Shown here piece after piece: positions 2,028 through 12,124 of a stretch of DNA of 64,000 bases (positions are counted from its first letter, which is position 1; every line of letters begins with the position of its first letter). Origin of the DNA: an uncultured Ectothiorhodospiraceae bacterium. Lineage in GTDB: Bacteria; Pseudomonadota; Gammaproteobacteria; GCA-002705445; GCA-002716945. The position numbers were made by a program, and so were the translations under genes. Below the pieces are notes generated by a model. It did not search any database and had not been told where the DNA came from. It was given only the letters and a program-made list of their open reading frames with translations. The stretch covers positions 27,734 to 91,733 of the forward strand of contig CAYFEQ010000003.1 in the NCBI GenBank assembly GCA_964342155.1, given 5' to 3'.

Positions 2028-4616
2028 TTAACTAATCATACTATTAAGTACATAATTCAATATACCTTCATTTTTATAATATTTCCACTCCATGGGAGAA
2101 TCAATTCTTATTTTGACCATAAATGACGCTGGCTTTTTATTAATCAAAGTTTCAATTGTAACTGTGTCAGAATTTTCATTAATTTTGTCTATTGTGAATG
2201 TTGACGTAGCGTCAAGTTTCAATGAATCAAAGTTTTCATTCTCAAGGAATTGAAGAGGCAAAATACCCATTCCAACAAGATTAGAACGATGAATGCGTTC
2301 AAAACTCTCAGCAATAACTGCCTTAACTCCTAAAAGCTTTGTACCTTTTGCCGCCCAATCACGAGAAGATCCACAACCATAATCTTTTCCAGCAAATATT
2401 ATTAAATTACTTTTATTCTTTTTATACTCTTGTGCTGCATCATATATTGTCATTATTTTATTATTCGGTATATATGAAGTATATCCACCAGTTTTTTCTG
2501 GAACTAATTTATTTGATAAACGAACATTAGCAAAAGTTCCACGTTCCATAATCTGATAATTACCTCTTCTTGATCCATAGGAATTAAAATCAATTTCATT
2601 AAACCCTTTATCAACTAAAAAACTACCAGCAGGAGAATTTTTCTTGAAGGATCCTGCTGGAGATATATGGTCAGTAGTGACACTGTCACCTAAAATTACA
2701 AGTGGGTAAGCATTATCTATTATATTGAATTTTTTTTCATTATTATAAACAGTCTCAAAAAATGGAGATGGTTGTATGTAAGTTGATTTTTCTTCCCAAT
2801 TAAAATAATCAGATTCATCAATTTTAATAGCTTTCCAATTTTCATCACCTTCAAATACTCTTTTATAAGAATTCGCAAACATGTCGCTTGTAATTGTCTC
2901 TTTTATAATAGATGTGATTTGATCTGAATCTGGCCAAATATCATCCAAATAAACATTTTTTCCGTTTTTATCTTTTCCTAGTGGTTCAGAAGTAATATCA
3001 ACATTTATTCTTCCCAACAATGAATATGCTATTACCAATATAGGCGATGCTAAGAAATTCATTTTTATTTCAGGATGTATACGGCCTTCAAAATTTCTAT
3101 TTCCAGACAATATTGAGCTAGCAATTAGATTATGTTTTTCAATTGCTTCCGTATATTCTTTTTTTAAAGGACCAGAATTTCCAATACATGTTGTGCATCC
3201 ATAGCCAACAACATTAAAACCTAATAAATCAAAGTATTTAAGCAGTCCTGATTTTTTTAAATAATTAGTAACAACTTTAGATCCAGGAGCTAATGATGTT
3301 TTAACCCAACTTGGCACTTTCAAACCTCTTTCAACTGCTTTCTTAGCAAGAAGTCCTGCTCCTATTATTACATTTGGATTTGATGTATTAGTACAACTTG
3401 TAATTGCGGCAATTAAAATTGCACCATTATCAATTAATGATTTTTCTTGTGTTTTCCCATTTGTTTGTTGTTTAATTTCATTGTTGACCAGTTCTTTTAC
3501 ATCAGTTAAATTTACTCTATCTTGTGGTCTTTTTGGTCCAGAAATACATGCATTAATCTTAGAGATATCTAAATCGATAACGTCTGAATAAATTATTTTA
3601 TTTTCATTATTCATAAATAAACCAACTCTTTTAGAATATTTCTCAACTAACTCAATATGTTCTTTGCTTTTTCCTGTAATTTTTAGATAATCAAGTGTCA
3701 AACTATCAATTGGAAAATAACCGCACGTTGCACCATATTCAGGTGCCATATTTGCAATGGTACATCTATCTGCTATTGATAAATTTTGTAATCCATCACC
3801 AAAGAATTCTACAAATTTACCAACGACATTTTTCTTCCTTAATATTTCAACAATTGTTAATACTAAATCAGTTGCAGTAATAGCCTTTTTGAGTTTGCCA
3901 GTTATTCTGAAACCTATTACTTCTGGTAAAAGCATTGGGATTGGTTGCCCCAGCATTGCAGCTTCAGCTTCTATACCTCCAACCCCCCAACCTAGAACAC
4001 CAAGACCGTTTACCATAGTTGTGTGGGAATCCGTCCCGACAACAGTATCTGGAAATAAAGAATTATTATTATTGAAAATAACTTGAGATATGTGCTCTAT
4101 ATTAATTTGATGAATTATTCCATTATTTGGCGGAACAATTCTTAAATTTTTAAAAGAGCTTTGCCCCCACTTCAATAATCTATATCTTTCTAAATTTCTT
4201 TTATATTCTAATTGAGTATTTAAATCTTTAGCTTTGTCGGTGCCAAAATGATCAACCATAACTGAATGATCAATCACCAAATCCGTTTGGCATTGAGGGT
4301 TTATAGATGATGGATCACCACCAAGTTTTTTTATAGCATCACGCATTGAAGCAAGATCTACTATAGCTGGGACACCAGTAAAATCTTGCATTATTACTCT
4401 ACTTGGTAAAAAGCTTAATTCTGTTTGATTCTTTATATTACCATTCCAATTAATAAAGTTTTCTACTGTACTATTTAAAGAAGATCCAACATTATTTCTA
4501 AGTAGATTTTCTAATAGGACTTTGAGGGAATATGGAAGATGACTAATCTTTAATTTATCAATATCGTGGATAGAAAAACTTTTATTTTGATGAACTAATT
4601 TATCAATACAATCCAT
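2028..4616 (-). CDS. acnA: Aconitate hydratase A
   Basis: RVIMQDFTGVP, VGTDSHT, AAITSCTNTSNP, GYGCTTCIGNSG, TTDHISPAG, YGCGSSRDWAAKG. Confidence 0.97.
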   Translation of the reverse strand: MDCIDKLVHQNKSFSIHDIDKLKISHLPYSLKVLLENLLRNNVGSSLNSTVENFINWNGNIKNQTELSFLPSRVIMQDFTGVPAIVDLASMRDAIKKLGGDPSSINPQCQTDLVIDHSVMVDHFGTDKAKDLNTQLEYKRNLERYRLLKWGQSSFKNLRIVPPNNGIIHQINIEHISQVIFNNNNSLFPDTVVGTDSHTTMVNGLGVLGWGVGGIEAEAAMLGQPIPMLLPEVIGFRITGKLKKAITATDLVLTIVEILRKKNVVGKFVEFFGDGLQNLSIADRCTIANMAPEYGATCGYFPIDSLTLDYLKITGKSKEHIELVEKYSKRVGLFMNNENKIIYSDVIDLDISKINACISGPKRPQDRVNLTDVKELVNNEIKQQTNGKTQEKSLIDNGAILIAAITSCTNTSNPNVIIGAGLLAKKAVERGLKVPSWVKTSLAPGSKVVTNYLKKSGLLKYFDLLGFNVVGYGCTTCIGNSGPLKKEYTEAIEKHNLIASSILSGNRNFEGRIHPEIKMNFLASPILVIAYSLLGRINVDITSEPLGKDKNGKNVYLDDIWPDSDQITSIIKETITSDMFANSYKRVFEGDENWKAIKIDESDYFNWEEKSTYIQPSPFFETVYNNEKKFNIIDNAYPLVILGDSVTTDHISPAGSFKKNSPAGSFLVDKGFNEIDFNSYGSRRGNYQIMERGTFANVRLSNKLVPEKTGGYTSYIPNNKIMTIYDAAQEYKKNKSNLIIFAGKDYGCGSSRDWAAKGTKLLGVKAVIAESFERIHRSNLVGMGILPLQFLENENFDSLKLDATSTFTIDKINENSDTVTIETLINKKPASFMVKIRIDSPMEWKYYKNEGILNYVLNSMIS

Positions 4617-4657
4617 ATTTTCTCCCTATTTGATAATCTCTTTTAAAAATTGGAAAT

Positions 4658-4666
4658 ATTCTAACA
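4658..4666 (-). promoter_or_regulatory. Candidate extended -10 promoter element for acnA
   Basis: TGTTAGAAT (TGnTAnnnT) about 40 nt upstream of the acnA ATG, in the 72-nt gap. Confidence 0.4.
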
Positions 4667-4688
4667 TAAAATAGAAATAAACTTGTAG

Positions 4689-5132
4689 TTATTTTAAAGG
4701 CAACCTCTGTTTAACTCTTTTAAATTTTATACCATAATGATTCTGACTATAATCATTAGTTTTTTCACCTATTAGATTATATCCTTTCTCTATATCTCCA
4801 AACGCTTGTGATAATGTATCATCAAGCTTTTTGCTATAATTTAAAGTATAAAGCCTTGGAGGTAATTGATTATCAAGGTTTTTTATCATTAAAATAAATT
4901 GTTTATCATCATTTTTATAAATAGATATTAACTTAAATTTTTCAGGTATATCTTCAGAAGTTGGGTAACCTAAATTCTTAAAATATTCTAATTGAATGGC
5001 TATAAAAAATAATAGGATCGAAGTAATTAATATTATTTTATTTTTAAAAGCAGTTTGTCTAATAATTAAAAAAATTAAATAACTATAGATAAGAGTTAAA
5101 AATAGTATAATGAATATAACATTGGATAACAT
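4689..5132 (-). CDS. Hypothetical membrane protein (two N-terminal TM helices plus small soluble domain); third gene of the MotA/ExbB-like cassette
   Basis: Two hydrophobic stretches, then LGYPT..IPEKFKL and PRLYTLNYS; 2-nt gap to the upstream gene. Confidence 0.75.
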   Translation of the reverse strand: MLSNVIFIILFLTLIYSYLIFLIIRQTAFKNKIILITSILLFFIAIQLEYFKNLGYPTSEDIPEKFKLISIYKNDDKQFILMIKNLDNQLPPRLYTLNYSKKLDDTLSQAFGDIEKGYNLIGEKTNDYSQNHYGIKFKRVKQRLPLK

Positions 5133-5134
5133 AT

Positions 5135-5746
5135 CTAATAACCTTTAAGCTCATAAGGGGTGAGGATTTTTTTCTGAGTTGGGCGAGAATTAAAGTTACC
5201 TAATTCATCTAAAAAAAATCTAGCCACTGTTATTTCAGCATCCTTTCCTGACAAGATTAGATCATCAAAAAATACTAGTTTTAAAGTTGGATTAACCCTT
5301 TCAATTTTTACTTTAACATCTACTGGTAAATTACTTTTATTTTCATATAAATATAAATTAACAATATATTCTCCAGGAATAATTCCTCTTAATGTTACAA
5401 CCTCTCTATTGAGAGGGTATATAACTTCTTTATTATTAATTAATACTTTATCATTTATTATGCCTTGATCATCTCTGTCAAGATGAAGCCATCCAGCATC
5501 TTTTTTTAAATATGAAACAATTTCACCATTAGGATCTTCAACCCAAATATCTACATCATCTGGAAGATTATCATTCCAATCAACACTGATAATATACTCA
5601 GCTTTAAGGTTGATATTACCAAGCTTAGAAATTGGATTAATAAATAATATAGTGATAAAAAATAAAAATGTAAAACCTAAAAGAACATTAAATAAAAGAT
5701 CAGTGAATGGATCAAAGTTATTGCGTTTATATTTTTTCATTATCAA
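5135..5746 (-). CDS. ExbD/MotB-like single-TM protein with a YfaP/DUF2135-like soluble domain
   Basis: TM helix preceded by Asp (FTDLLFNVLLGF..), then W...DDVDIWVEDPNG...LHLDRDD.G...PGEYIVNLYLY; overlaps the upstream MotA/ExbB-like gene by 20 nt. Confidence 0.7.
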   Translation of the reverse strand: MIMKKYKRNNFDPFTDLLFNVLLGFTFLFFITILFINPISKLGNINLKAEYIISVDWNDNLPDDVDIWVEDPNGEIVSYLKKDAGWLHLDRDDQGIINDKVLINNKEVIYPLNREVVTLRGIIPGEYIVNLYLYENKSNLPVDVKVKIERVNPTLKLVFFDDLILSGKDAEITVARFFLDELGNFNSRPTQKKILTPYELKGY

Positions 5747-6470
5747 AGTTTTTAATTAAAAATGGATAAAGTTCAATAATTTCATTTATCATATTTAAAA
5801 TATTTAATAAATTATCTTCTAAATATTTATATTGTAGTGACAAAAGAATAGATGTAATTAATCCAGATAAAGTTGTATATAATGCAACTTTCATACCGCC
5901 ACTCATTTGTTGCAATAAATTTTGCATCATAGTTAAATCAAAATTTTCTATCAATGTTACTGAATTGAGCATTAAAATAAACCCAATAACAGTACCAACT
6001 AATCCTAGCTTTAATAAAAAATCTGAAATAAACCAGCCGGTCTCTAATATTTTTGTAAATTTATATTCAAAAATAGTTATTAATTCTTTTTTTGATGATT
6101 CGGATGGACTTTCATTATTCATAAATGTATTAAGGTTCTTAAAGTGATTATAGATGATGGTAAGAAAAGGATTATTGGTTGAATTAAAGCTAACTAATTG
6201 TGATTTATTAAACTTTTCCGTGCTAATACATTCATCTTTGAAAATTAAACAAGCCTGGTGAGTTTTTCTTAATTTATAAAGAATATATCCCACATGCCCA
6301 GTAAATAATATAAAAATGATAATTATAATTGGTGAGATGAAACTAACATCATTTTCTATCAAATCATTTATAAAACCAAATTTATAGAAAATAATTAAAA
6401 ATATTGTGAGTGCAACAATAAAAAGAAGCCATCTTATAAAGATAAAATCACTTTCTCTCTTATCTATCAT
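5727..6470 (-). CDS. MotA/TolQ/ExbB proton-channel family protein
   Basis: LGLVGTVIGF and GMKVALYTTLSGL channel helices; two further N-terminal TM segments. Confidence 0.88.
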   Translation of the reverse strand: MIDKRESDFIFIRWLLFIVALTIFLIIFYKFGFINDLIENDVSFISPIIIIIFILFTGHVGYILYKLRKTHQACLIFKDECISTEKFNKSQLVSFNSTNNPFLTIIYNHFKNLNTFMNNESPSESSKKELITIFEYKFTKILETGWFISDFLLKLGLVGTVIGFILMLNSVTLIENFDLTMMQNLLQQMSGGMKVALYTTLSGLITSILLSLQYKYLEDNLLNILNMINEIIELYPFLIKNFDNEKI

Positions 6471-6472
6471 TT

Positions 6473-7855
6473 TTATATAAGTTTCTTTGGATCTAATAAT
6501 TTTACAAGTTGTGATCTTGATAAATTTGTCATCTGTTCTGCTATATCTATTATTGATTTATTAGTCTTATATGCTTCTTTTACAATCTTAGCTGCAAGAT
6601 CATAACCAACAACTTCATTGAGTTTGGTTGCAACAATAGGGTTTCTTTCTAAACTCTTTCTGATATTTTCCTCATTAGCTTTAAATCCTTGTATTGTTGA
6701 AGCCAATGATAAGCATGAGTCAGTAACTATTTCAAAAGATTCTATGATGTTGTGAGCAATTATGGGCAACATAGTATTTAGCTGGAAATTGCTCGACATA
6801 CAAGCCGAAGTAATTGAATTGTTATTGCCTAGCACTCTTGTCATAGCCATAAGTATTGCTTCCGGCATAACTGGATTAATTTTGCCTGGCATTATACTGC
6901 TTCCAGGTTGAAGTGGTTTAAGAGTAATTTCTGCTAAACCCGATGTAGGTCCACTATTCATCCATCGGAGATCATTACAAATTTTTGTAATAGAAGATGA
7001 GATTCTTACTAATGATGCGCTCATAGTTAAAATATGATCCTGAGATGATATCATCTGACCTTTTTCAGATAGAGGTCTAAATTTTATTTTTAAATTTTTA
7101 TAAATCTTATTTAATTCAATGCATACTTTTTTATCAAATCCTTTGGGTGCGTTTAATCCTGTTCCAATTGCAGTTCCACCGATAGGAATGGATAGTATTT
7201 CATCACGAGCAGTATCCATGGTTGAATATGCAGCCTGTAATAACTGTCTCCAAATTTCAATTTCTTGACCAAAGGAGATTGGAACTGCATCCATAAGATG
7301 AGTGCGTCCAGATTTAACAATTTTCTTTAAGTCATTAGATTTTTTTTCCAAAACATAATCTAGATAACCCATGCTATCAACAAGTTCTGCTTCAGCTCTC
7401 ACACAACTAATATTTATTGTTGTTGGTATAACATCATTAGAGCTTTGTGATTTGTTTATATCATCATTTGGATGAACTTTTTGTTTAAGCTTCTTTGAAA
7501 CTAAATTTGCTAAAACTTCGTTCATATTCATATTAATGCTTGTTCCAGAACCTGTTTGATATAATGGTGCTGGAAAATGTTCATAATAATCAGCTATATT
7601 ATTATTAATTTGTGATGCGCATTCATGTATTGCAGATGATAGTTTCTTATTAATAATATTTGATTTGTAGTTGGCAATTGCACAAGCACCTTTTAGCATT
7701 GCTAAAGATTGAATGAAGCTTGGATAAAACCAATCATTGCCTATCTGGAAATTATCAACAGCTCTCTGGGTTTGAGCGCCATACAAAGCATCTTTCGGAA
7801 CTTTTACCTTACCTAAAGAATCTTCTTCAATTCTATATGTAATTTTCTTTTTCAT
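6473..7855 (-). CDS. fumC: Class II fumarate hydratase
   Basis: YGAQTQRA, QTGSGTS.NMN.NEV, GRTHLMDA.P, PGSSIMPGKINP signature. Confidence 0.94.
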   Translation of the reverse strand: MKKKITYRIEEDSLGKVKVPKDALYGAQTQRAVDNFQIGNDWFYPSFIQSLAMLKGACAIANYKSNIINKKLSSAIHECASQINNNIADYYEHFPAPLYQTGSGTSINMNMNEVLANLVSKKLKQKVHPNDDINKSQSSNDVIPTTINISCVRAEAELVDSMGYLDYVLEKKSNDLKKIVKSGRTHLMDAVPISFGQEIEIWRQLLQAAYSTMDTARDEILSIPIGGTAIGTGLNAPKGFDKKVCIELNKIYKNLKIKFRPLSEKGQMISSQDHILTMSASLVRISSSITKICNDLRWMNSGPTSGLAEITLKPLQPGSSIMPGKINPVMPEAILMAMTRVLGNNNSITSACMSSNFQLNTMLPIIAHNIIESFEIVTDSCLSLASTIQGFKANEENIRKSLERNPIVATKLNEVVGYDLAAKIVKEAYKTNKSIIDIAEQMTNLSRSQLVKLLDPKKLI

Positions 7856-7929: not shown

Positions 7930-9297
7930 ATGAAAAAATATGATTTACTCTCGATCTCGCCGATAGATGGTAGGTATTTTGAAGTTTGTCATGGTATGGC
8001 AGAACATTTTTCAGAGTACGCATTAATTAAAAATAGAGTTCTAGTAGAAGTAAAGTGGCTATTATTCCTATCTAATCAAAAAGAAATTAGGAGTATTCCA
8101 ATACTTAATACTGTATCAAAAAACTTTCTCTTAAAAATACATGATGGTTTTACTATTAAGGATGCAGAAAAAATTAAAAAGCTTGAATCAACAACCAAGC
8201 ATGATGTTAAAGCAGTTGAATACTTTATTAAAAGTAAAATAAAGAAGCACCCTATCTTAAAAAAATATATTGAACACGTTCATATTTGCTGTACTTCAGA
8301 AGATATAAATAATTTATCGTATGCGATGATGATTAATCAAGGAAGATTGCTTCTTAAAAAGAAAATGGATTCATTAAATAAATTAATTTTAAGCTATGTT
8401 AAAAAATATTCAAAAAATGTAATGATTTCCCATACTCATGGTCAAATTGCAACACCTACAACTATGGGAAAAGAGTTTCTTAATTTTTATTCTAGACTAT
8501 CGCTCCTATCAATTGAATTATCAGATATAAATATTTTTGGAAAATTTAATGGAGCAACTGGAAATTATTCTTCACACTCTATTGCATTTCCAAATGTTAA
8601 TTGGCCAAAAGTAAATAAAAGATTTATAGAATCACTAGGTATAAAAGAAAATAAATATACTACCCAAATAGAACCACATGATTACATTTGTAGTATCTCT
8701 AACAAATTATCACATTATAATTCTATTCTAATAGGGTTGTCTCAAGATATTTGGTTCTATATCTCTAAAAACTATTTTGTTCAAAAAAATGTAAAAGGAG
8801 AAATAGGGTCCTCAACTATGCCTCATAAAATTAATCCTATTAATTTTGAAAATGCAGAAGGCAATCTTGGAATTACTAATAGCCTGCTTAGATTCTTTTC
8901 AGAAAAACTTGTAATATCTAGACTGCAGCGAGACTTATCTGACTCTACTGTTCTTAGAAATATTGGGCTGGCATTTAGTTATTCATATCTTGCTTATGAC
9001 AATATGATTGTTGGTTTAAAAAAAATATCTCTAAACAATGATATTCTTGATAAAGATCTTTCAAATTCCTGGGAAATACTTGCTGAACCAATTCAAATGA
9101 TAGCAAGAAAATATAACATCACTAACTCCTATGAAATTTTAAAAAAAGAAACCAGGGGTAAACAAGTCACCCAAGATGTCATTGCGAAAATAATTAATGT
9201 ATTAGATATTCCATTAAGTGAAAAAAAATTATTGTTATCACTAACGCCAAAAAAATATATTGGTTTTTCAATAAAATTATGTAATGACTTCAAATGA
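7930..9297 (+). CDS. purB: Adenylosuccinate lyase
   Basis: ISPIDGRY, HDVKAVEYF, TSEDINN, GSSTMPHKINP, SRLQRDLSDS. Confidence 0.97.
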   Translation: MKKYDLLSISPIDGRYFEVCHGMAEHFSEYALIKNRVLVEVKWLLFLSNQKEIRSIPILNTVSKNFLLKIHDGFTIKDAEKIKKLESTTKHDVKAVEYFIKSKIKKHPILKKYIEHVHICCTSEDINNLSYAMMINQGRLLLKKKMDSLNKLILSYVKKYSKNVMISHTHGQIATPTTMGKEFLNFYSRLSLLSIELSDINIFGKFNGATGNYSSHSIAFPNVNWPKVNKRFIESLGIKENKYTTQIEPHDYICSISNKLSHYNSILIGLSQDIWFYISKNYFVQKNVKGEIGSSTMPHKINPINFENAEGNLGITNSLLRFFSEKLVISRLQRDLSDSTVLRNIGLAFSYSYLAYDNMIVGLKKISLNNDILDKDLSNSWEILAEPIQMIARKYNITNSYEILKKETRGKQVTQDVIAKIINVLDIPLSEKKLLLSLTPKKYIGFSIKLCNDFK

Positions 9298-9532
9298 CAA
9301 TGATATTTATCTAGTATTTATTGAAATTGAAGAAATTCTTGATAATTTCAACATAGAATATGAATCATTAGATAACAGAATTGAGTTCTTTACTGCAAAT
9401 TCTACTCAAATCATAGTTGCTGTCGATAATGGGAATATAATAGTTTTTCGAGAAGATAAAAGTCGTATTTTTACTTTGAATTCAAGTAAGATTGAACTTT
9501 TTAAATTTATTAAAAAATGTATTGAATCCTAA
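9284..9532 (+). CDS. Small acidic hypothetical protein, possibly a degenerate CyaY/frataxin-like fold
   Basis: 82 aa, overlaps purB end; IEEILDN..IEYE...IEF..N.TQIIV pattern resembles CyaY alpha1-beta1-3; the CyaY Q-x-W motif is absent. Confidence 0.55.
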   Translation: MTSNDNDIYLVFIEIEEILDNFNIEYESLDNRIEFFTANSTQIIVAVDNGNIIVFREDKSRIFTLNSSKIELFKFIKKCIES

Positions 9533-11007: not shown

Positions 11008-12124
11008 TTATAATCCAGCTTTTAAACTCTCTTCAATAAATTGATCTAATTCTCCATCTAGGACAGCTTGAGTATTTCCAGTTTCATATTTTGTTCTCAA
11101 GTCTTTGACTCTTGAATCATCTAGTATATATGATCTAATCTGACTGCCCCATCCAATATCAGATTTTTCTGATTCAATTTGATTCTTAACGGCATTTTGT
11201 TTTTCTATTTCATATAAATATAGTTTAGCACGTAGTTGCTTTAATGCGCTTTCTTTGTTTTTATGTTGAGAGCGACTATTTTGACATTGAACTACAATGT
11301 TTGTCGGTAGGTGTGTGATTCTGACAGCTGATTCAGTTGTATTAACATGCTGTCCTCCCGCTCCACTAGCTCTATAAACATCAATGCGTATGTCTGCTGG
11401 GTTTATTTCAATATTTAAATCATCTTCAATCTGTGGATATACAAAAATTGATGCAAAGGATGTGTGCCTACGATTTCCAGAATCAAATGGTGATTTTCTT
11501 ACTAATCTATGTATTCCTGTTTCTGTTCTCAGCCAACCATATACATAATCACCATGGATTTTAATTGTTACACTTTTATAGCCTGCGATCTCTCCTTCTG
11601 ATGCTTCAATTATCTCTGTAGTAAAATTATGTGTTTCACACCATTTTAAATACATTCTCATCAACATTGAGACCCAGTCTTGGGCTTCTGTTCCACCAGA
11701 ACCAGATTGAATATCTAGGTAAGCGTCATATGAGTCATGCTCATTTTTAAACATTTGTTTAAATTCAATTGCATACAAAAGTTTATCTGCATTGGCTATT
11801 AAATCTTTCATCTCTCTAACTAGATCTATATTTTTTTCAATCAAATTATCCTTGAGCAATGAATTCAATGTATATTGTGCCATTTCTACGTCATTATTAA
11901 TTTTTTGCATTTCTGAATAGGAGGATTTCAGGCTTTTATGTTCTTTTTGAATTGAGGCAAGTTTTTTTCTATTTTTCCATACTTTTTCATCTTCTAATTG
12001 CGCCTCCAAAGTAGTTATTTTAGATACAAGGTTATCGTAGTCAAACTAACCTCCTGAGCTCTGTAAATTTTTTTTCAAGCTCTTTTGCCTTATTTAAAAT
12101 ATCCAATATATCATCTCTATTCAT
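11008..12124 (-). CDS. prfB: Peptide chain release factor 2, programmed +1 frameshift (27 codons + 344 codons)
   Basis: SPF and GGQ motifs; upstream ORF ATG at 12124 ([27 protein letters not shown]) joins the long frame by +1 at 12043. Confidence 0.95.
12040..12055 (-). promoter_or_regulatory. prfB frameshift cassette: SD AGGAGG, 3-nt spacer TTA, GTT TGA C
   Basis: Minus strand reads AGG AGG TTA GTT TGA CTAC GAT; the +1 frame GAC TAC GAT... is in frame with the ORF-track start at 12009. Confidence 0.9.

Follow-up and report, generated by a model that had tools for sequence, protein, structure and literature searches.

A three-gene cassette carried by phages and bacteria is an undescribed relative of the ExbB/ExbD-type membrane motors

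Three genes lying between fumC and acnA in a marine gammaproteobacterium, here called g1, g2 and g3, form an undescribed cassette related to the proton-driven membrane motors of the ExbB/ExbD type. Ion-driven 5:2 motors power flagella, gliding, Ton/Tol transport and Zorya defence, and whenever their conserved ring-and-axle core was found with another output domain, a further use of the proton gradient came to light. To these motors the cassette contributes a B subunit that bears a beta-sandwich, and a third subunit of a new kind. It is common to phages and bacteria and moves between them, and it is not described in the literature that we searched on DUF2135, YfaP, phage-encoded ExbB/TolQ and the carrier phages. 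In our view it is fairly probable that the cassette encodes a PMF-driven motor of the 5:2 type, shared by phages and cells, whose output is membrane-proximal and located at the outer face of the inner membrane.

The window, by which we mean the whole stretch of 64 kb of DNA that was analysed, consists of housekeeping genes. A first-pass annotation had placed three genes between fumC and acnA, and all three open reading frames were found there, with the following features.

6473..7855, minus strand: fumC, the upstream neighbour (open reading frame and translation; Pfam Lyase_1/FumaraseC_C in syntenic loci)
5727..6470, minus strand: g1, 247 aa (ORF translation)
5859..6008, minus strand: channel-lining part of g1, residues 155-204 (alignment to TolQ)
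5135..5740 (ATG start) or 5135..5746 (TTG start), minus strand: g2, 201 aa or 203 aa
5699..5701, minus strand: codon of g2 Asp16 (203-aa numbering), in PFTDLLFN at the cytoplasmic end of the TM helix
5183..5596, minus strand: beta-sandwich of g2, residues 51-188 (AF2 model, which has only beta-strands there)
5468..5485, minus strand: HLDRDD signature of g2, residues 88-93, an insertion that YfaP is without
4689..5132, minus strand: g3, 147 aa (ORF translation)
4971..5129, minus strand: two-helix membrane hairpin of g3, residues 2-54 (AF2)
4713..4967, minus strand: OB-like domain of g3, beta-beta-beta-alpha-beta-beta, residues 56-140 (AF2)
2028..4616, minus strand: acnA, the downstream neighbour, 72 nt past g3

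The genes are tightly spaced, as had been reported: a 2-nt gap separates the fumC stop (6473) from the g1 start (6470), g1 and g2 overlap, and a second 2-nt gap separates g2 and g3. The overlap of 20 nt given originally corresponds to the TTG start of g2 at 5746 and falls to 14 nt with the ATG at 5740. Because g2 homologues are 201 aa long and begin with MKK, the ATG at 5740 is probably the true start. It is also probable that fumC and g1 are co-transcribed. A promoter/terminator scan detected no terminator-like site on the minus strand; the scan was uninformative at 30% GC, with 28 promoter-like sites against 27.8 expected. The AGGGAG ribosome-binding site is acnA's own. Since g1, g2 and g3 are kept, with their order unchanged, in different phyla and in phages, they are real genes and not chance open reading frames. 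The arrangement fumC-g1-g2-g3 is kept in all seven metagenome relatives whose fumC is at least 63% identical, and the cassette of this SAR86-like marine gammaproteobacterial lineage is a long-fixed chromosomal copy. A prophage or a defence island in the window was ruled out by the housekeeping content of the 64 kb and by the conserved synteny.

The proposal that g1 is a MotA/ExbB-type channel was borne out by Pfam, in which residues 155-227 matched PF01618 (MotA_ExbB) with 36.9 bits against a cut-off of 22.9 (E 3.6e-9); the same domain is also precomputed for g1 homologues of 74% identity. When family profiles were compared with hhalign, E. coli TolQ was recovered as a relative with 86% probability (E 4.8e-6). 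Hydropathy gives four hydrophobic segments in g1, at about residues 9-27, 42-60, 156-174 and 193-213. In the third of these LGLVGT160VIGF aligns with IGLFGT145VWGI of TolQ, and in the fourth ALYTT200LSGL aligns with ALIAT178AIGL, which puts T160 and T200 of g1 at the aligned positions of TolQ T145 and T178. Across 100 homologues, GTV and ALYTT are retained in at least 80-95%. The cytoplasmic loop holds an insertion of about 90 residues which, in the family alignment, most viral homologues are without; the viral g1 proteins, 171 aa long at the median, have little cytoplasmic domain left. Among the named profiles of NCBIfam and PADLOC, the ZorA subfamilies scored best. ZorA_2 matched with E 2.3e-7 and 30.2 bits (cut-off 100), covering only the shared channel helices, ZorA_1 reached 11.9 bits (cut-off 190), PADLOC ZorA1 gave E 2.9e-8, and NCBIfam MotP gave E of about 0.3-0.6. 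Both collections thus returned for g1 only a generic ZorA/TolQ/MotP similarity far below the cut-offs, and this, together with a length of 247 aa, agrees with the earlier view that g1 has no ZorA tail.

The second gene has the layout of an axle-type (B) subunit: the short N-terminus is cytoplasmic, and a single TM helix is joined by a linker of about 15 residues to a beta-sandwich. In the AF2 model (mean pLDDT 89.1, pTM 0.74) the helix spans residues 13-35 and the strands lie within 51-188. Asp16 is in a position that we take to be that of the proton-carrying Asp of ExbD (D25) and TolR (D23), and at least 95% of 100 non-redundant homologues, cellular and viral, retain it; the description of g2 as a single-TM protein with the diagnostic Asp in FTDLLF was therefore sound. 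The best local hhalign segment against ExbD paired FTDLLF with FIDVML in an alignment that was not significant. Pfam ExbD (PF02472) gave no match to the window protein at E<=10 and was matched by only 2 of 38 family members (best E 0.005). The resemblance of the g2 helix to ExbD/TolR is at the level of the motif only. Against the periplasmic domains of E. coli TolR and ExbD, hhalign gave no similarity (probability <=1%), no OmpA domain was matched in g2 by Pfam or NCBIfam, and MotB_plug was matched by a single one of the 38 members, at E 0.055. With a soluble part that is modelled as a beta-sandwich and has no TolR/ExbD profile similarity, g2 is not an ordinary ExbD/TolR, nor is it of the OmpA type, and on both points the original reading was correct.

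The beta-sandwich of g2 is acidic (pI 4.8) and is predicted to face the periplasm. It had been called DUF2135-like; a remote profile similarity to YfaP lends that name no more than distant support, and the window protein has no Pfam match to the family. The g2 family profile matched E. coli YfaP with 92.7% probability (E 4.4e-7) over 77 columns, with a gap at the HLDRDD insertion, and residues of about 46-141 align with YfaP 139-218 through the strands W..D.DL.V..P.G...Y and E....PG.Y.V..YY. In Pfam nothing was matched by the window g2 at E<=10, DUF2135 (PF09906) included, and 2 of the 38 family members matched DUF2135 (best E 6.2e-4). The best fold match in the PDB by Foldseek was the TerD homologue 2qz7 (E 2.3e-4, probability 1.00), though with a TM-score of only 0.45/0.52 and 15% identity. 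The profile also weakly matches the beta-jelly-roll of Tk-SP subtilisin (3afg) through W..(D)DVDLyv.DP.G, a PPC-type motif. Neither g2 alone nor its profile found anything significant among PDB chain sequences, a Foldseek search of the BFVD viral structures gave low TM-scores and uninformative names, and PADLOC had no matches for g2 or g3. The domain is thus remotely DUF2135/YfaP-like and PPC-like and structurally closest to TerD, and we know of no mechanism for either the DUF2135 or the TerD family. In a comparison of 38 diverse members, R91 and D92 of the HLDRDD signature never vary and L89 and D93 reach at least 90% conservation, and the (M)HLDRDD(L)G stretch is kept in at least 95% of 100 homologues. 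This charged patch may bind a metal (Ca2+) or another ligand.

The product of g3 had been described as a two-TM protein, and two helices were recovered both by AF2 (residues 2-26 and 29-54; pLDDT of the model 81.6) and by hydropathy (6-24 and 33-51). The OB-like domain that follows is probably on the periplasmic side. Family members share the motifs GWP, PRxYxLPYS and LPPxLPxK, and a conserved LPxK-type tail forms the C-terminus. Searches of Pfam, of PDB sequences with the profile and of structures with Foldseek gave no significant match, the PDB matches by Foldseek being only weak and OB-fold-like (best E 0.065). No Pro-rich TonB or TolA had been seen in the cassette, and g3 does not take that place: besides having two TM helices, it shows no conserved His in the TM region (no His-rich column), 21 members of its family have no Pfam match, TonB_C included, and its hhalign probability against TolA is 0.3%. 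The pI of the g3 domain runs from 4.2 to 11.6 across the family, with a median of 7.2, and charge complementarity between g2 and g3 was dropped as an idea.

Far from being an orphan, as it was thought to be, the cassette belongs to a large family present in phages and cells, with 1,652 relatives of g2 among 50%-identity cluster representatives (E<=1e-3). No cassette-specific Pfam, NCBIfam, PHROG or PADLOC family was reached at threshold by g1, g2 or g3, and PHROGs v4 has no family for these or for the homologues in phage P10VF. The genes do form a co-occurring unit, being found together and in that order in 79 of 80 viral contigs (a g3 homologue being present in all 80 viral loci), in essentially all of 38 cellular loci (g1 and g2 in 38, g3 in 37, adjacent), and in three cultured types of Rhizobium/Sinorhizobium phage, P10VF, RHph_N3_19 and the temperate 16-3, the last with small inserted ORFs. 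The cassette genes are P10VF_191-193 in P10VF and p038, p040 and p042 in 16-3. A candidate natural g1-g2 fusion, P0177, was discounted, as it resembles a merged gene call. Chromosomal carriers include Geminicoccaceae, MarineAlpha6, the candidate phyla radiation (CPR) and Azospirillum, in which the cassette sits on a chromid. Its presence in contigs from CPR and Chloroflexota MAGs argues for independence from an outer membrane. Because the flanking genes are not conserved between lineages, the unit is exactly g1, g2 and g3. Viral loci hold terminase, prohead protease and primase genes, and cellular loci hold NadA, GatB, SufB and a GH15 glycoside hydrolase. Peptide-pattern scans found the family to be far denser in phage sequence than in cellular genomes, where one pattern was scanned per collection and the counts are lower bounds that are not strictly comparable, and where IMG/VR is not dereplicated and some of its contigs may be prophage or host fragments. 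The phage neighbours of the cassette are heterogeneous. In lytic rhizobiophages it lies among early and DNA-metabolism genes, in the temperate phage 16-3 it lies downstream of the immX region, and among the loci inspected no holin or endolysin was linked to it.

These features suggest how the cassette could work. The three proteins would form one inner-membrane complex of the 5:2 ion-driven class to which MotAB, ExbBD, TolQR and ZorAB belong, in which g1 is the channel-forming A subunit, expected to be a pentamer, and the g2 helices with their protonatable Asp16 are expected to lie as a dimer within the g1 ring. Proton flow would then turn one part against the other, with the compact acidic sandwich of g2 predicted to sit only about 15 residues from the membrane. 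As the obligate third subunit, g3 would most likely be docked outside the g1 ring, as the TonB/TolA helix is, and could receive or restrain the movement; we infer that the complex is an energised one with g3 as its output. Cytoplasmic mass is nearly absent from most members of the family, and what lies in the periplasm is short; the most likely place of action is therefore the outer face of the inner membrane, rather than the outer membrane or a cytoplasmic rotor. The position of the phage cassette among early and DNA-metabolism genes suggests that, as infection proceeds, it may remodel or guard the envelope or PMF of the host, the exclusion of competing phages being one example, and the marine gammaproteobacterial copy would be transcribed with fumC. 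Envelope manipulation or phage-phage exclusion is our leading guess for the biological role. No datum points to a specific substrate or phenotype of the cassette.

A different reading would make the cassette a conflict system, a membrane sentinel or blocker that in cells gives a Zorya-like anti-phage defence sensing envelope breach and in phages and prophages brings about superinfection exclusion by stopping the entry of competitor DNA. That ZorA1 and ZorA_2 are the closest named profiles for g1, that the cassette moves between phages and bacteria, that it lies downstream of the immX region in a temperate phage and that lytic rhizobiophages carry it in a region of early and DNA-metabolism genes, a common place for exclusion genes, are all consistent with such a role. 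However, the ZorA scores are far under the cut-offs (30 vs 100 bits) and come from the shared channel helices only, g2 and g3 are without PADLOC matches, and the cassette has neither a ZorA tail nor a ZorC/D/E-type effector, a nuclease or any other effector; the first-pass annotation had likewise reported no Zorya effectors, and the genes that flank the cassette are indeed fumC and acnA. The cellular copies, moreover, are among housekeeping genes and not in defence islands, and the fixed position in the SAR86-like lineage is without the turnover typical of defence genes. We regard this reading as unlikely.

It is also conceivable, although we think it quite improbable, that the complex is not a force-generating motor at all but a gated ion pathway, conducting protons or other cations (under Ca2+ control through the g2 sandwich, for example) and so tuning or collapsing the membrane potential, which would serve lysis timing or host shut-off in phages and ion homeostasis in cells. 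The conserved Asp and Thr pathway is of the ion-channel type, and the g2 domain, which is acidic and has invariant Asp residues, resembles Ca2+-binding beta-sandwiches (TerD and the PPC-type motif) and has no long linker or anchoring domain with which to exert force over a distance. Yet to our knowledge ion flow is coupled to movement in every characterised member of the MotA/TolQ/ExbB superfamily, a third membrane subunit that is obligate and has a folded domain of its own is more easily understood as a mechanical partner, and the loci inspected link no holin or endolysin to the cassette. In a further reading, which we think very improbable, g1 and g2 are a divergent pair of the ExbBD/TolQR kind. 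They would supply energy to a TonB or TolA whose gene lies elsewhere in the genome, and so serve outer-membrane transport or stabilisation. Membership of g1 in the MotA_ExbB family, with TolQ a detectable relative, would fit such an ordinary paralogue, and TonB-dependent transporters abound in marine gammaproteobacteria of this type, but this reading is already largely refuted. The ExbD/TolR periplasmic fold that contacts TonB/TolA is missing from g2, g3 has no TM His, no long Pro-rich linker and no TonB_C match, g1 has four hydrophobic segments where ExbB has three, and the cassette occurs in phages and in CPR and Chloroflexota, where an outer-membrane target is unlikely.

If the cassette is the PMF-driven motor that we favour, a bolder proposal, which we hold possible but on balance somewhat doubtful, is that it is the first ion-driven 5:2 motor family to have tailed-phage genomes as its main home. 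It would be a self-contained three-subunit PMF machine that phages place in the inner membrane of the host at an early stage of infection, so as to manipulate the envelope or keep competitors out, and that several bacterial lineages, including this abundant marine gammaproteobacterium, later captured and fixed as core genes. The abundance of the cassette in phages would mean an unstudied viral use of host membrane energy, and the fact that a streamlined ocean bacterium has it fixed among its core genes implies that the cell truly benefits from it. The Rhizobium phages P10VF, RHph_N3_19 and temperate 16-3, together with Azospirillum brasilense, which has two copies, are cultured carriers in which these ideas are directly testable.

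Several known systems can be compared with the cassette. It resembles ExbB-ExbD and TolQ-TolR in that g1 is a MotA_ExbB protein with the equivalents of the TolQ T145/T178 threonines, in that g2 has a single N-terminal TM helix with an Asp at its cytoplasmic end in (P)F.D(L/V)(L/M), and in that the genes are adjacent and translationally coupled, with a third membrane protein alongside. It differs from them in the DUF2135-like/TerD-like beta-sandwich of g2, where ExbD/TolR have an alpha/beta periplasmic fold, in the two-TM hairpin and OB-like domain of g3, where TonB/TolA have one TM helix and a long linker, in the four hydrophobic segments of g1 in place of the three of ExbB, with A subunits that usually have almost no cytoplasmic domain, and in being found, unlike Ton/Tol, in phages and likely monoderm lineages. 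With MotA-MotB and PomA-PomB the cassette shares a four-segment A subunit, a cytoplasmic loop between segments 2 and 3 and an Asp-bearing helix in g2, but it has no torque-generating cytoplasmic interface or nearby flagellar genes, and g2 is without the plug and subsequent OmpA-like domain of MotB/PomB. Zorya ZorA-ZorB is similar in that ZorA is the best named profile for g1 and that it is a non-flagellar 5:2 motor class with a role in phage-host conflict. In contrast to it, g1 is without the long ZorA cytoplasmic tail (247 aa, as compared with ZorA profiles of 383-700 positions), g2 is without the ZorB peptidoglycan-binding domain, and the cassette, with scores below cut-offs and a housekeeping context, is without the ZorC/D/E effectors.

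The idea that a TolQ-like ring can work with an unusual axle has a precedent. According to a recent report, TolQ-like pentamers pair with a non-ExbD 'transpore helix' partner that has a vWA periplasmic domain (Mol Biol Evol 2025, PMC12204202, section 8). As in the cassette, these systems have a TolQ-like A subunit without a syntenic ExbD/TolR gene, and the Asp helix of the partner is predicted to lie inside the pentamer and bears an unrelated periplasmic domain, though this is vWA there and a beta-sandwich in g2. That section describes heterologous pairs in Proteobacteria and Verrucomicrobia, does not mention phage copies and has no counterpart of g3. The relatives of the sandwich itself, YfaP (DUF2135) and TerD, are not tethered to a motor helix, and YfaP is without the HLDRDD(L)G..ND insertion; in g2 the sandwich is joined to such a helix and carries this insertion as its own.

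The cassette, encoded by the minus strand, sits between fumC and acnA as the first-pass annotation had it, and the ORF coordinates also agree with the tight packing described there (a 2-nt gap, a 20-nt overlap and a 2-nt gap).

5727-6470, minus strand, g1, the MotA/TolQ/ExbB-type channel subunit, 247 aa
5135-5746, minus strand, g2, the single-helix subunit, 203 aa from a TTG start
4689-5132, minus strand, g3, the third, two-helix subunit, 147 aa

The end of fumC is 2 nt from g1, and g2 is 2 nt from g3. The g1/g2 overlap is 20 nt with the TTG start and 14 nt with the ATG at 5740, which matches the start of the 201-aa g2 homologues in databases. A scan of the minus strand from fumC to g3 found nothing resembling a terminator, and because of this and the close spacing fumC, g1, g2 and g3 probably form a single transcript. 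The acnA gene begins 72 nt past g3 and has a strong ribosome-binding site of its own.

The window has a GC content of 30% across all 64 kb and its gene content is that of a housekeeping region (mnmA, hflD, acnA, fumC, purB, lysS, prfB, pheST, ribosomal proteins, isc genes and secDF). It is core chromosome of a marine gammaproteobacterium and not a mobile element. The lineage is putatively SAR86-like. Close homologues carry the source labels "Gammaproteobacteria bacterium" or "Pseudomonadota bacterium", and assembly GCA_902533905.1 holds one identical copy. Elsewhere in the window, prfB (11008-12122, minus strand) shows what looks like the classical programmed +1 frameshift: from the ATG at 12122 a short frame runs into ...CTCAGGAGGTTAGTTTGAC, with an SD-like AGGAGG ahead of GTT TGA C and the shift site near 12035-12050, and the main ORF (listed from 12009) goes on in the +1 frame. 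An 82-aa small ORF between purB and lysS (9284-9532, plus strand) is a conserved unknown, with a gene of about 80 aa and no Pfam family at the same position in relatives with 74% g2 identity (L001:4231-4473).

In those same relatives synteny is identical over 16 kb. A metagenome scan of fumC loci found g1 directly after fumC in all seven loci whose fumC is 63% or more identical, with g2 and g3 visible in six (the seventh contig ends too early), and found the cassette in 0 of 73 loci with fumC less than 50% identical. Judged from this conserved synteny and fumC linkage, the cassette at the fumC site is old and fixed and not a recent insertion.

The cassette had been described as an orphan, a label that has to be dropped: g2 has 1,652 relatives among 50%-identity cluster representatives at E<=1e-3 (967 of them at E<=1e-10) and 1,364 matches at 90% clustering. 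All named members read are annotated "hypothetical protein". When one genome per GTDB species was scanned with a single peptide pattern, 35 cellular loci were found, a lower bound that is not comparable across collections, in Geminicoccaceae and other Alphaproteobacteria, MarineAlpha6/Pelagibacteraceae, Desulfobacterales, Rokubacteria, Chloroflexota, and CPR Harrisonbacteria and Yanofskybacteria; the CPR and Chloroflexota assignments come from MAG binning, with cellular neighbour genes. With three loci syntenic with the window added, g2 is immediately preceded by a g1 homologue in 38 of 38 loci and immediately followed by a g3 homologue in 37 of them. The flanking genes are ordinary and vary from lineage to lineage (NadA, histidine kinase, GatB, SufB, GH15 glycoside hydrolase). 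Azospirillum chromids have two g2 matches per record, and the one inspected is a full divergent g1-g2-g3 unit. In the A. brasilense chromid locus L209 (NZ_CP059450.1, 718279-728701) the g1-like, g2-like and g3-like genes lie at 4192-4845, 4668-5477 and 5500-6036, a region for which PLSDB lists no annotation; six further chromids, from cultured strains, carry g2 matches.

The unit is also present in viral loci and cultured phages. The same peptide pattern gave 157 confirmed relatives, again a lower bound, in IMG/VR, a collection that is not dereplicated and may include host fragments, and the g1-g2-g3 order with all three genes was found in 79 of 80 fetched loci. The three genes do co-occur as a unit. 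Many of the viral contigs are of 100-500 kb, and the loci are genuine tailed phages; next to the cassette they encode, among others, terminase large subunit, prohead protease, primase, Hsp20, ERCC4 nuclease, a sigma factor, ClpS and GDP-mannose dehydratase. Among cultured phages, 29 GenBank records have a g2 homologue, all of them Rhizobium or Sinorhizobium phages, and the unit was resolved in three types.

vB_RleM_P10VF (T4-superfamily): P10VF_191/192/193, between topoisomerase II genes and late sigma, gp46/47-like and clamp genes
RHph_N3_19 (68 kb): EVB99_065-067
16-3 (temperate): p038, p040 and p042, with small ORFs interspersed

The size of the family, its abundance in viruses and its cultured carriers raise the interest of the cassette. 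In a neighbour-joining tree of g2, which is crude and not meaningfully rooted, cellular clades (the window and its relatives, Geminicoccaceae, MarineAlpha6 and CPR) fall among viral branches, which indicates, as far as such a tree can be read, that phages and cells have exchanged the cassette repeatedly.

Several neighbours recur. A GDP-mannose 4,6-dehydratase or nucleotide-sugar epimerase gene occurs in 22 of 80 phage loci (e.g. the L056:7235-8320 region, L061:2674-3726 and L097), directly 3' of g3 in mapped loci, and some cellular copies lie by an epimerase (L038), a sugar transferase (L037) or a glycosyltransferase-9 gene (L100), which hints weakly at a connection with surface polysaccharides. 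A trypsin-like protease lies about 1-3 kb from the cassette in two unrelated rhizobiophages, 16-3 (p036, L127:3211-4110, annotated as typically periplasmic) and RHph_N3_19 (EVB99_075, L128:7240-7932), and may be coincidence or an accessory gene. One phage contig with the cassette also encodes a full-length Volactin-family (actin-like) protein (L063:1058-2071, PF25216, E 3.9e-66), and neighbours of this family were found in eight viral loci. ClpS and Hsp20 genes recur in one group of large phage contigs (L062:7152-7454 and L062:2377-2820), with ClpS directly after g3 in L062, L104 and L112. One database protein, P0177 (411 aa, NCBI/ENA, 49.5-kb contig), joins a g1-like half (~150-245) and a g2-like half (268-407) in one ORF, and is either a natural fusion of the two subunits or a merged or frameshifted gene call.

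The first-pass reading of g1 as a MotA/ExbB-type channel protein is upheld by a Pfam MotA_ExbB match over residues 155-227 that exceeds the gathering threshold (36.9 against 22.9 bits), and g1 belongs to the MotA/TolQ/ExbB family. Its family profile aligns with E. coli TolQ at a probability of 86%, pairing GLFGT145 and ALIAT178, which hold the TolQ channel threonines, with LGLVGT160 and ALYTT200 of g1; both g1 motifs are kept across 100 non-redundant homologues. Three segments that stand out clearly by hydropathy (9-27, 42-60 and 156-174), a weaker fourth spanning the ALYTT helix and the charge distribution suggest a MotA-like layout of four helices with cytoplasmic termini. Segments 2 and 3 are separated by a loop of about 90 residues in the window protein and Geminicoccaceae copies, but by almost none in most homologues; the median viral g1 is 171 aa. 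This cytoplasmic insertion (residues ~61-150) is confined, among aligned sequences, to SAR86-like and Geminicoccaceae chromosomal copies (e.g. L006:5247-6008) and is missing from most viral and other cellular copies, with a few viral g1 proteins of up to ~250 aa. The insertion may serve regulation or partner binding specifically in cells.

No match to g2 was found in Pfam, NCBIfam, PADLOC, PHROG or PDB sequences. A confident AlphaFold2 model built from 38 diverse homologues (pLDDT 89.1, pTM 0.74) has one transmembrane helix (13-35) and, after a short linker, a sandwich made up entirely of beta-strands (51-188). The single helix with its diagnostic Asp (FTDLLF) is thus as first described: Asp16 (PFTDLLFN) is retained in at least 95% of homologues and occupies the place of ExbD D25 and TolR D23 in an alignment that is itself not significant. 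The soluble domain is indeed acidic (pI 4.8; family median 5.0) and other than an ExbD/TolR domain, profile comparison giving no similarity to either. The YfaP/DUF2135-like label holds only as a remote relationship: the family profile aligns with E. coli YfaP (probability 92.7%, E 4.4e-7, 77 columns) and two of 38 members match PF09906, but the window protein has no Pfam match, and the invariant charged signature (M/L)HLDRDD(L/Q)G..ND sits in an insertion that YfaP does not have. Among solved structures a TerD homologue comes closest (2qz7, E 2.3e-4, TM-score ~0.5), and a weak profile match to the subtilisin beta-jelly-roll has the motif W..D.DL.v.DP.G in common. The g2 protein is outside the ExbD/TolR, MotB and ZorB families and at most a remote DUF2135 relative.

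Searches of Pfam, NCBIfam, PADLOC and PDB sequences gave no family match for g3. Its model (pLDDT 81.6) contains the two transmembrane segments noted earlier as long helices (2-26 and 29-54), followed by a beta-beta-beta-alpha-beta-beta domain. The folds nearest to this domain, none of them significant matches, are of the OB type, for example eIF5A and AB5-toxin B subunits. The loop between the two helices is positively charged, which suggests a periplasmic location for the modelled domain. The family shares the motifs GWP, PRxYxLPYS(R/K)xLH and, at the C-terminus, LPPxLPxK.

Because the core features are conserved (a channel subunit of the right family with its Thr pair, a single-helix subunit with its Asp, and translational coupling), we propose that g1 and g2 form a ring-and-axle motor powered by the proton (or sodium) gradient. 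The usual output-defining parts are replaced, in g2 by a compact acidic beta-sandwich very close to the membrane and in g3 by a hairpin that carries a small OB-like domain; most family members have a minimal cytoplasmic face, and the cassette functions in hosts with an outer membrane and probably also in those without. For these reasons the output would lie on the outer side of the inner membrane. We consider this motor and output somewhat likelier than otherwise. A classical defence island is disfavoured because cellular copies are fixed in a housekeeping context. The early or DNA-metabolism gene position in phages and the presence in a temperate phage lead us to favour a role in manipulating the envelope or the PMF or in keeping out competitors, with far less confidence in any particular role than in the motor itself.

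The system is distinct from Zorya, Ton, Tol and the flagellar stator, and the contrast with Zorya drawn earlier is borne out by the best-scoring named profiles for g1, ZorA subfamilies at 30 bits against a 100-bit cut-off. g3 is a member of no known family. No published description of the cassette was found in the openly searchable literature; one may exist in subscription journals. The architecture has precedent, since TolQ-like rings whose "transpore helix" partners are non-ExbD proteins bearing vWA domains were proposed in a recent survey (PMC12204202); the beta-sandwich, g3 and the phage distribution of the cassette have no precedent in the literature searched.
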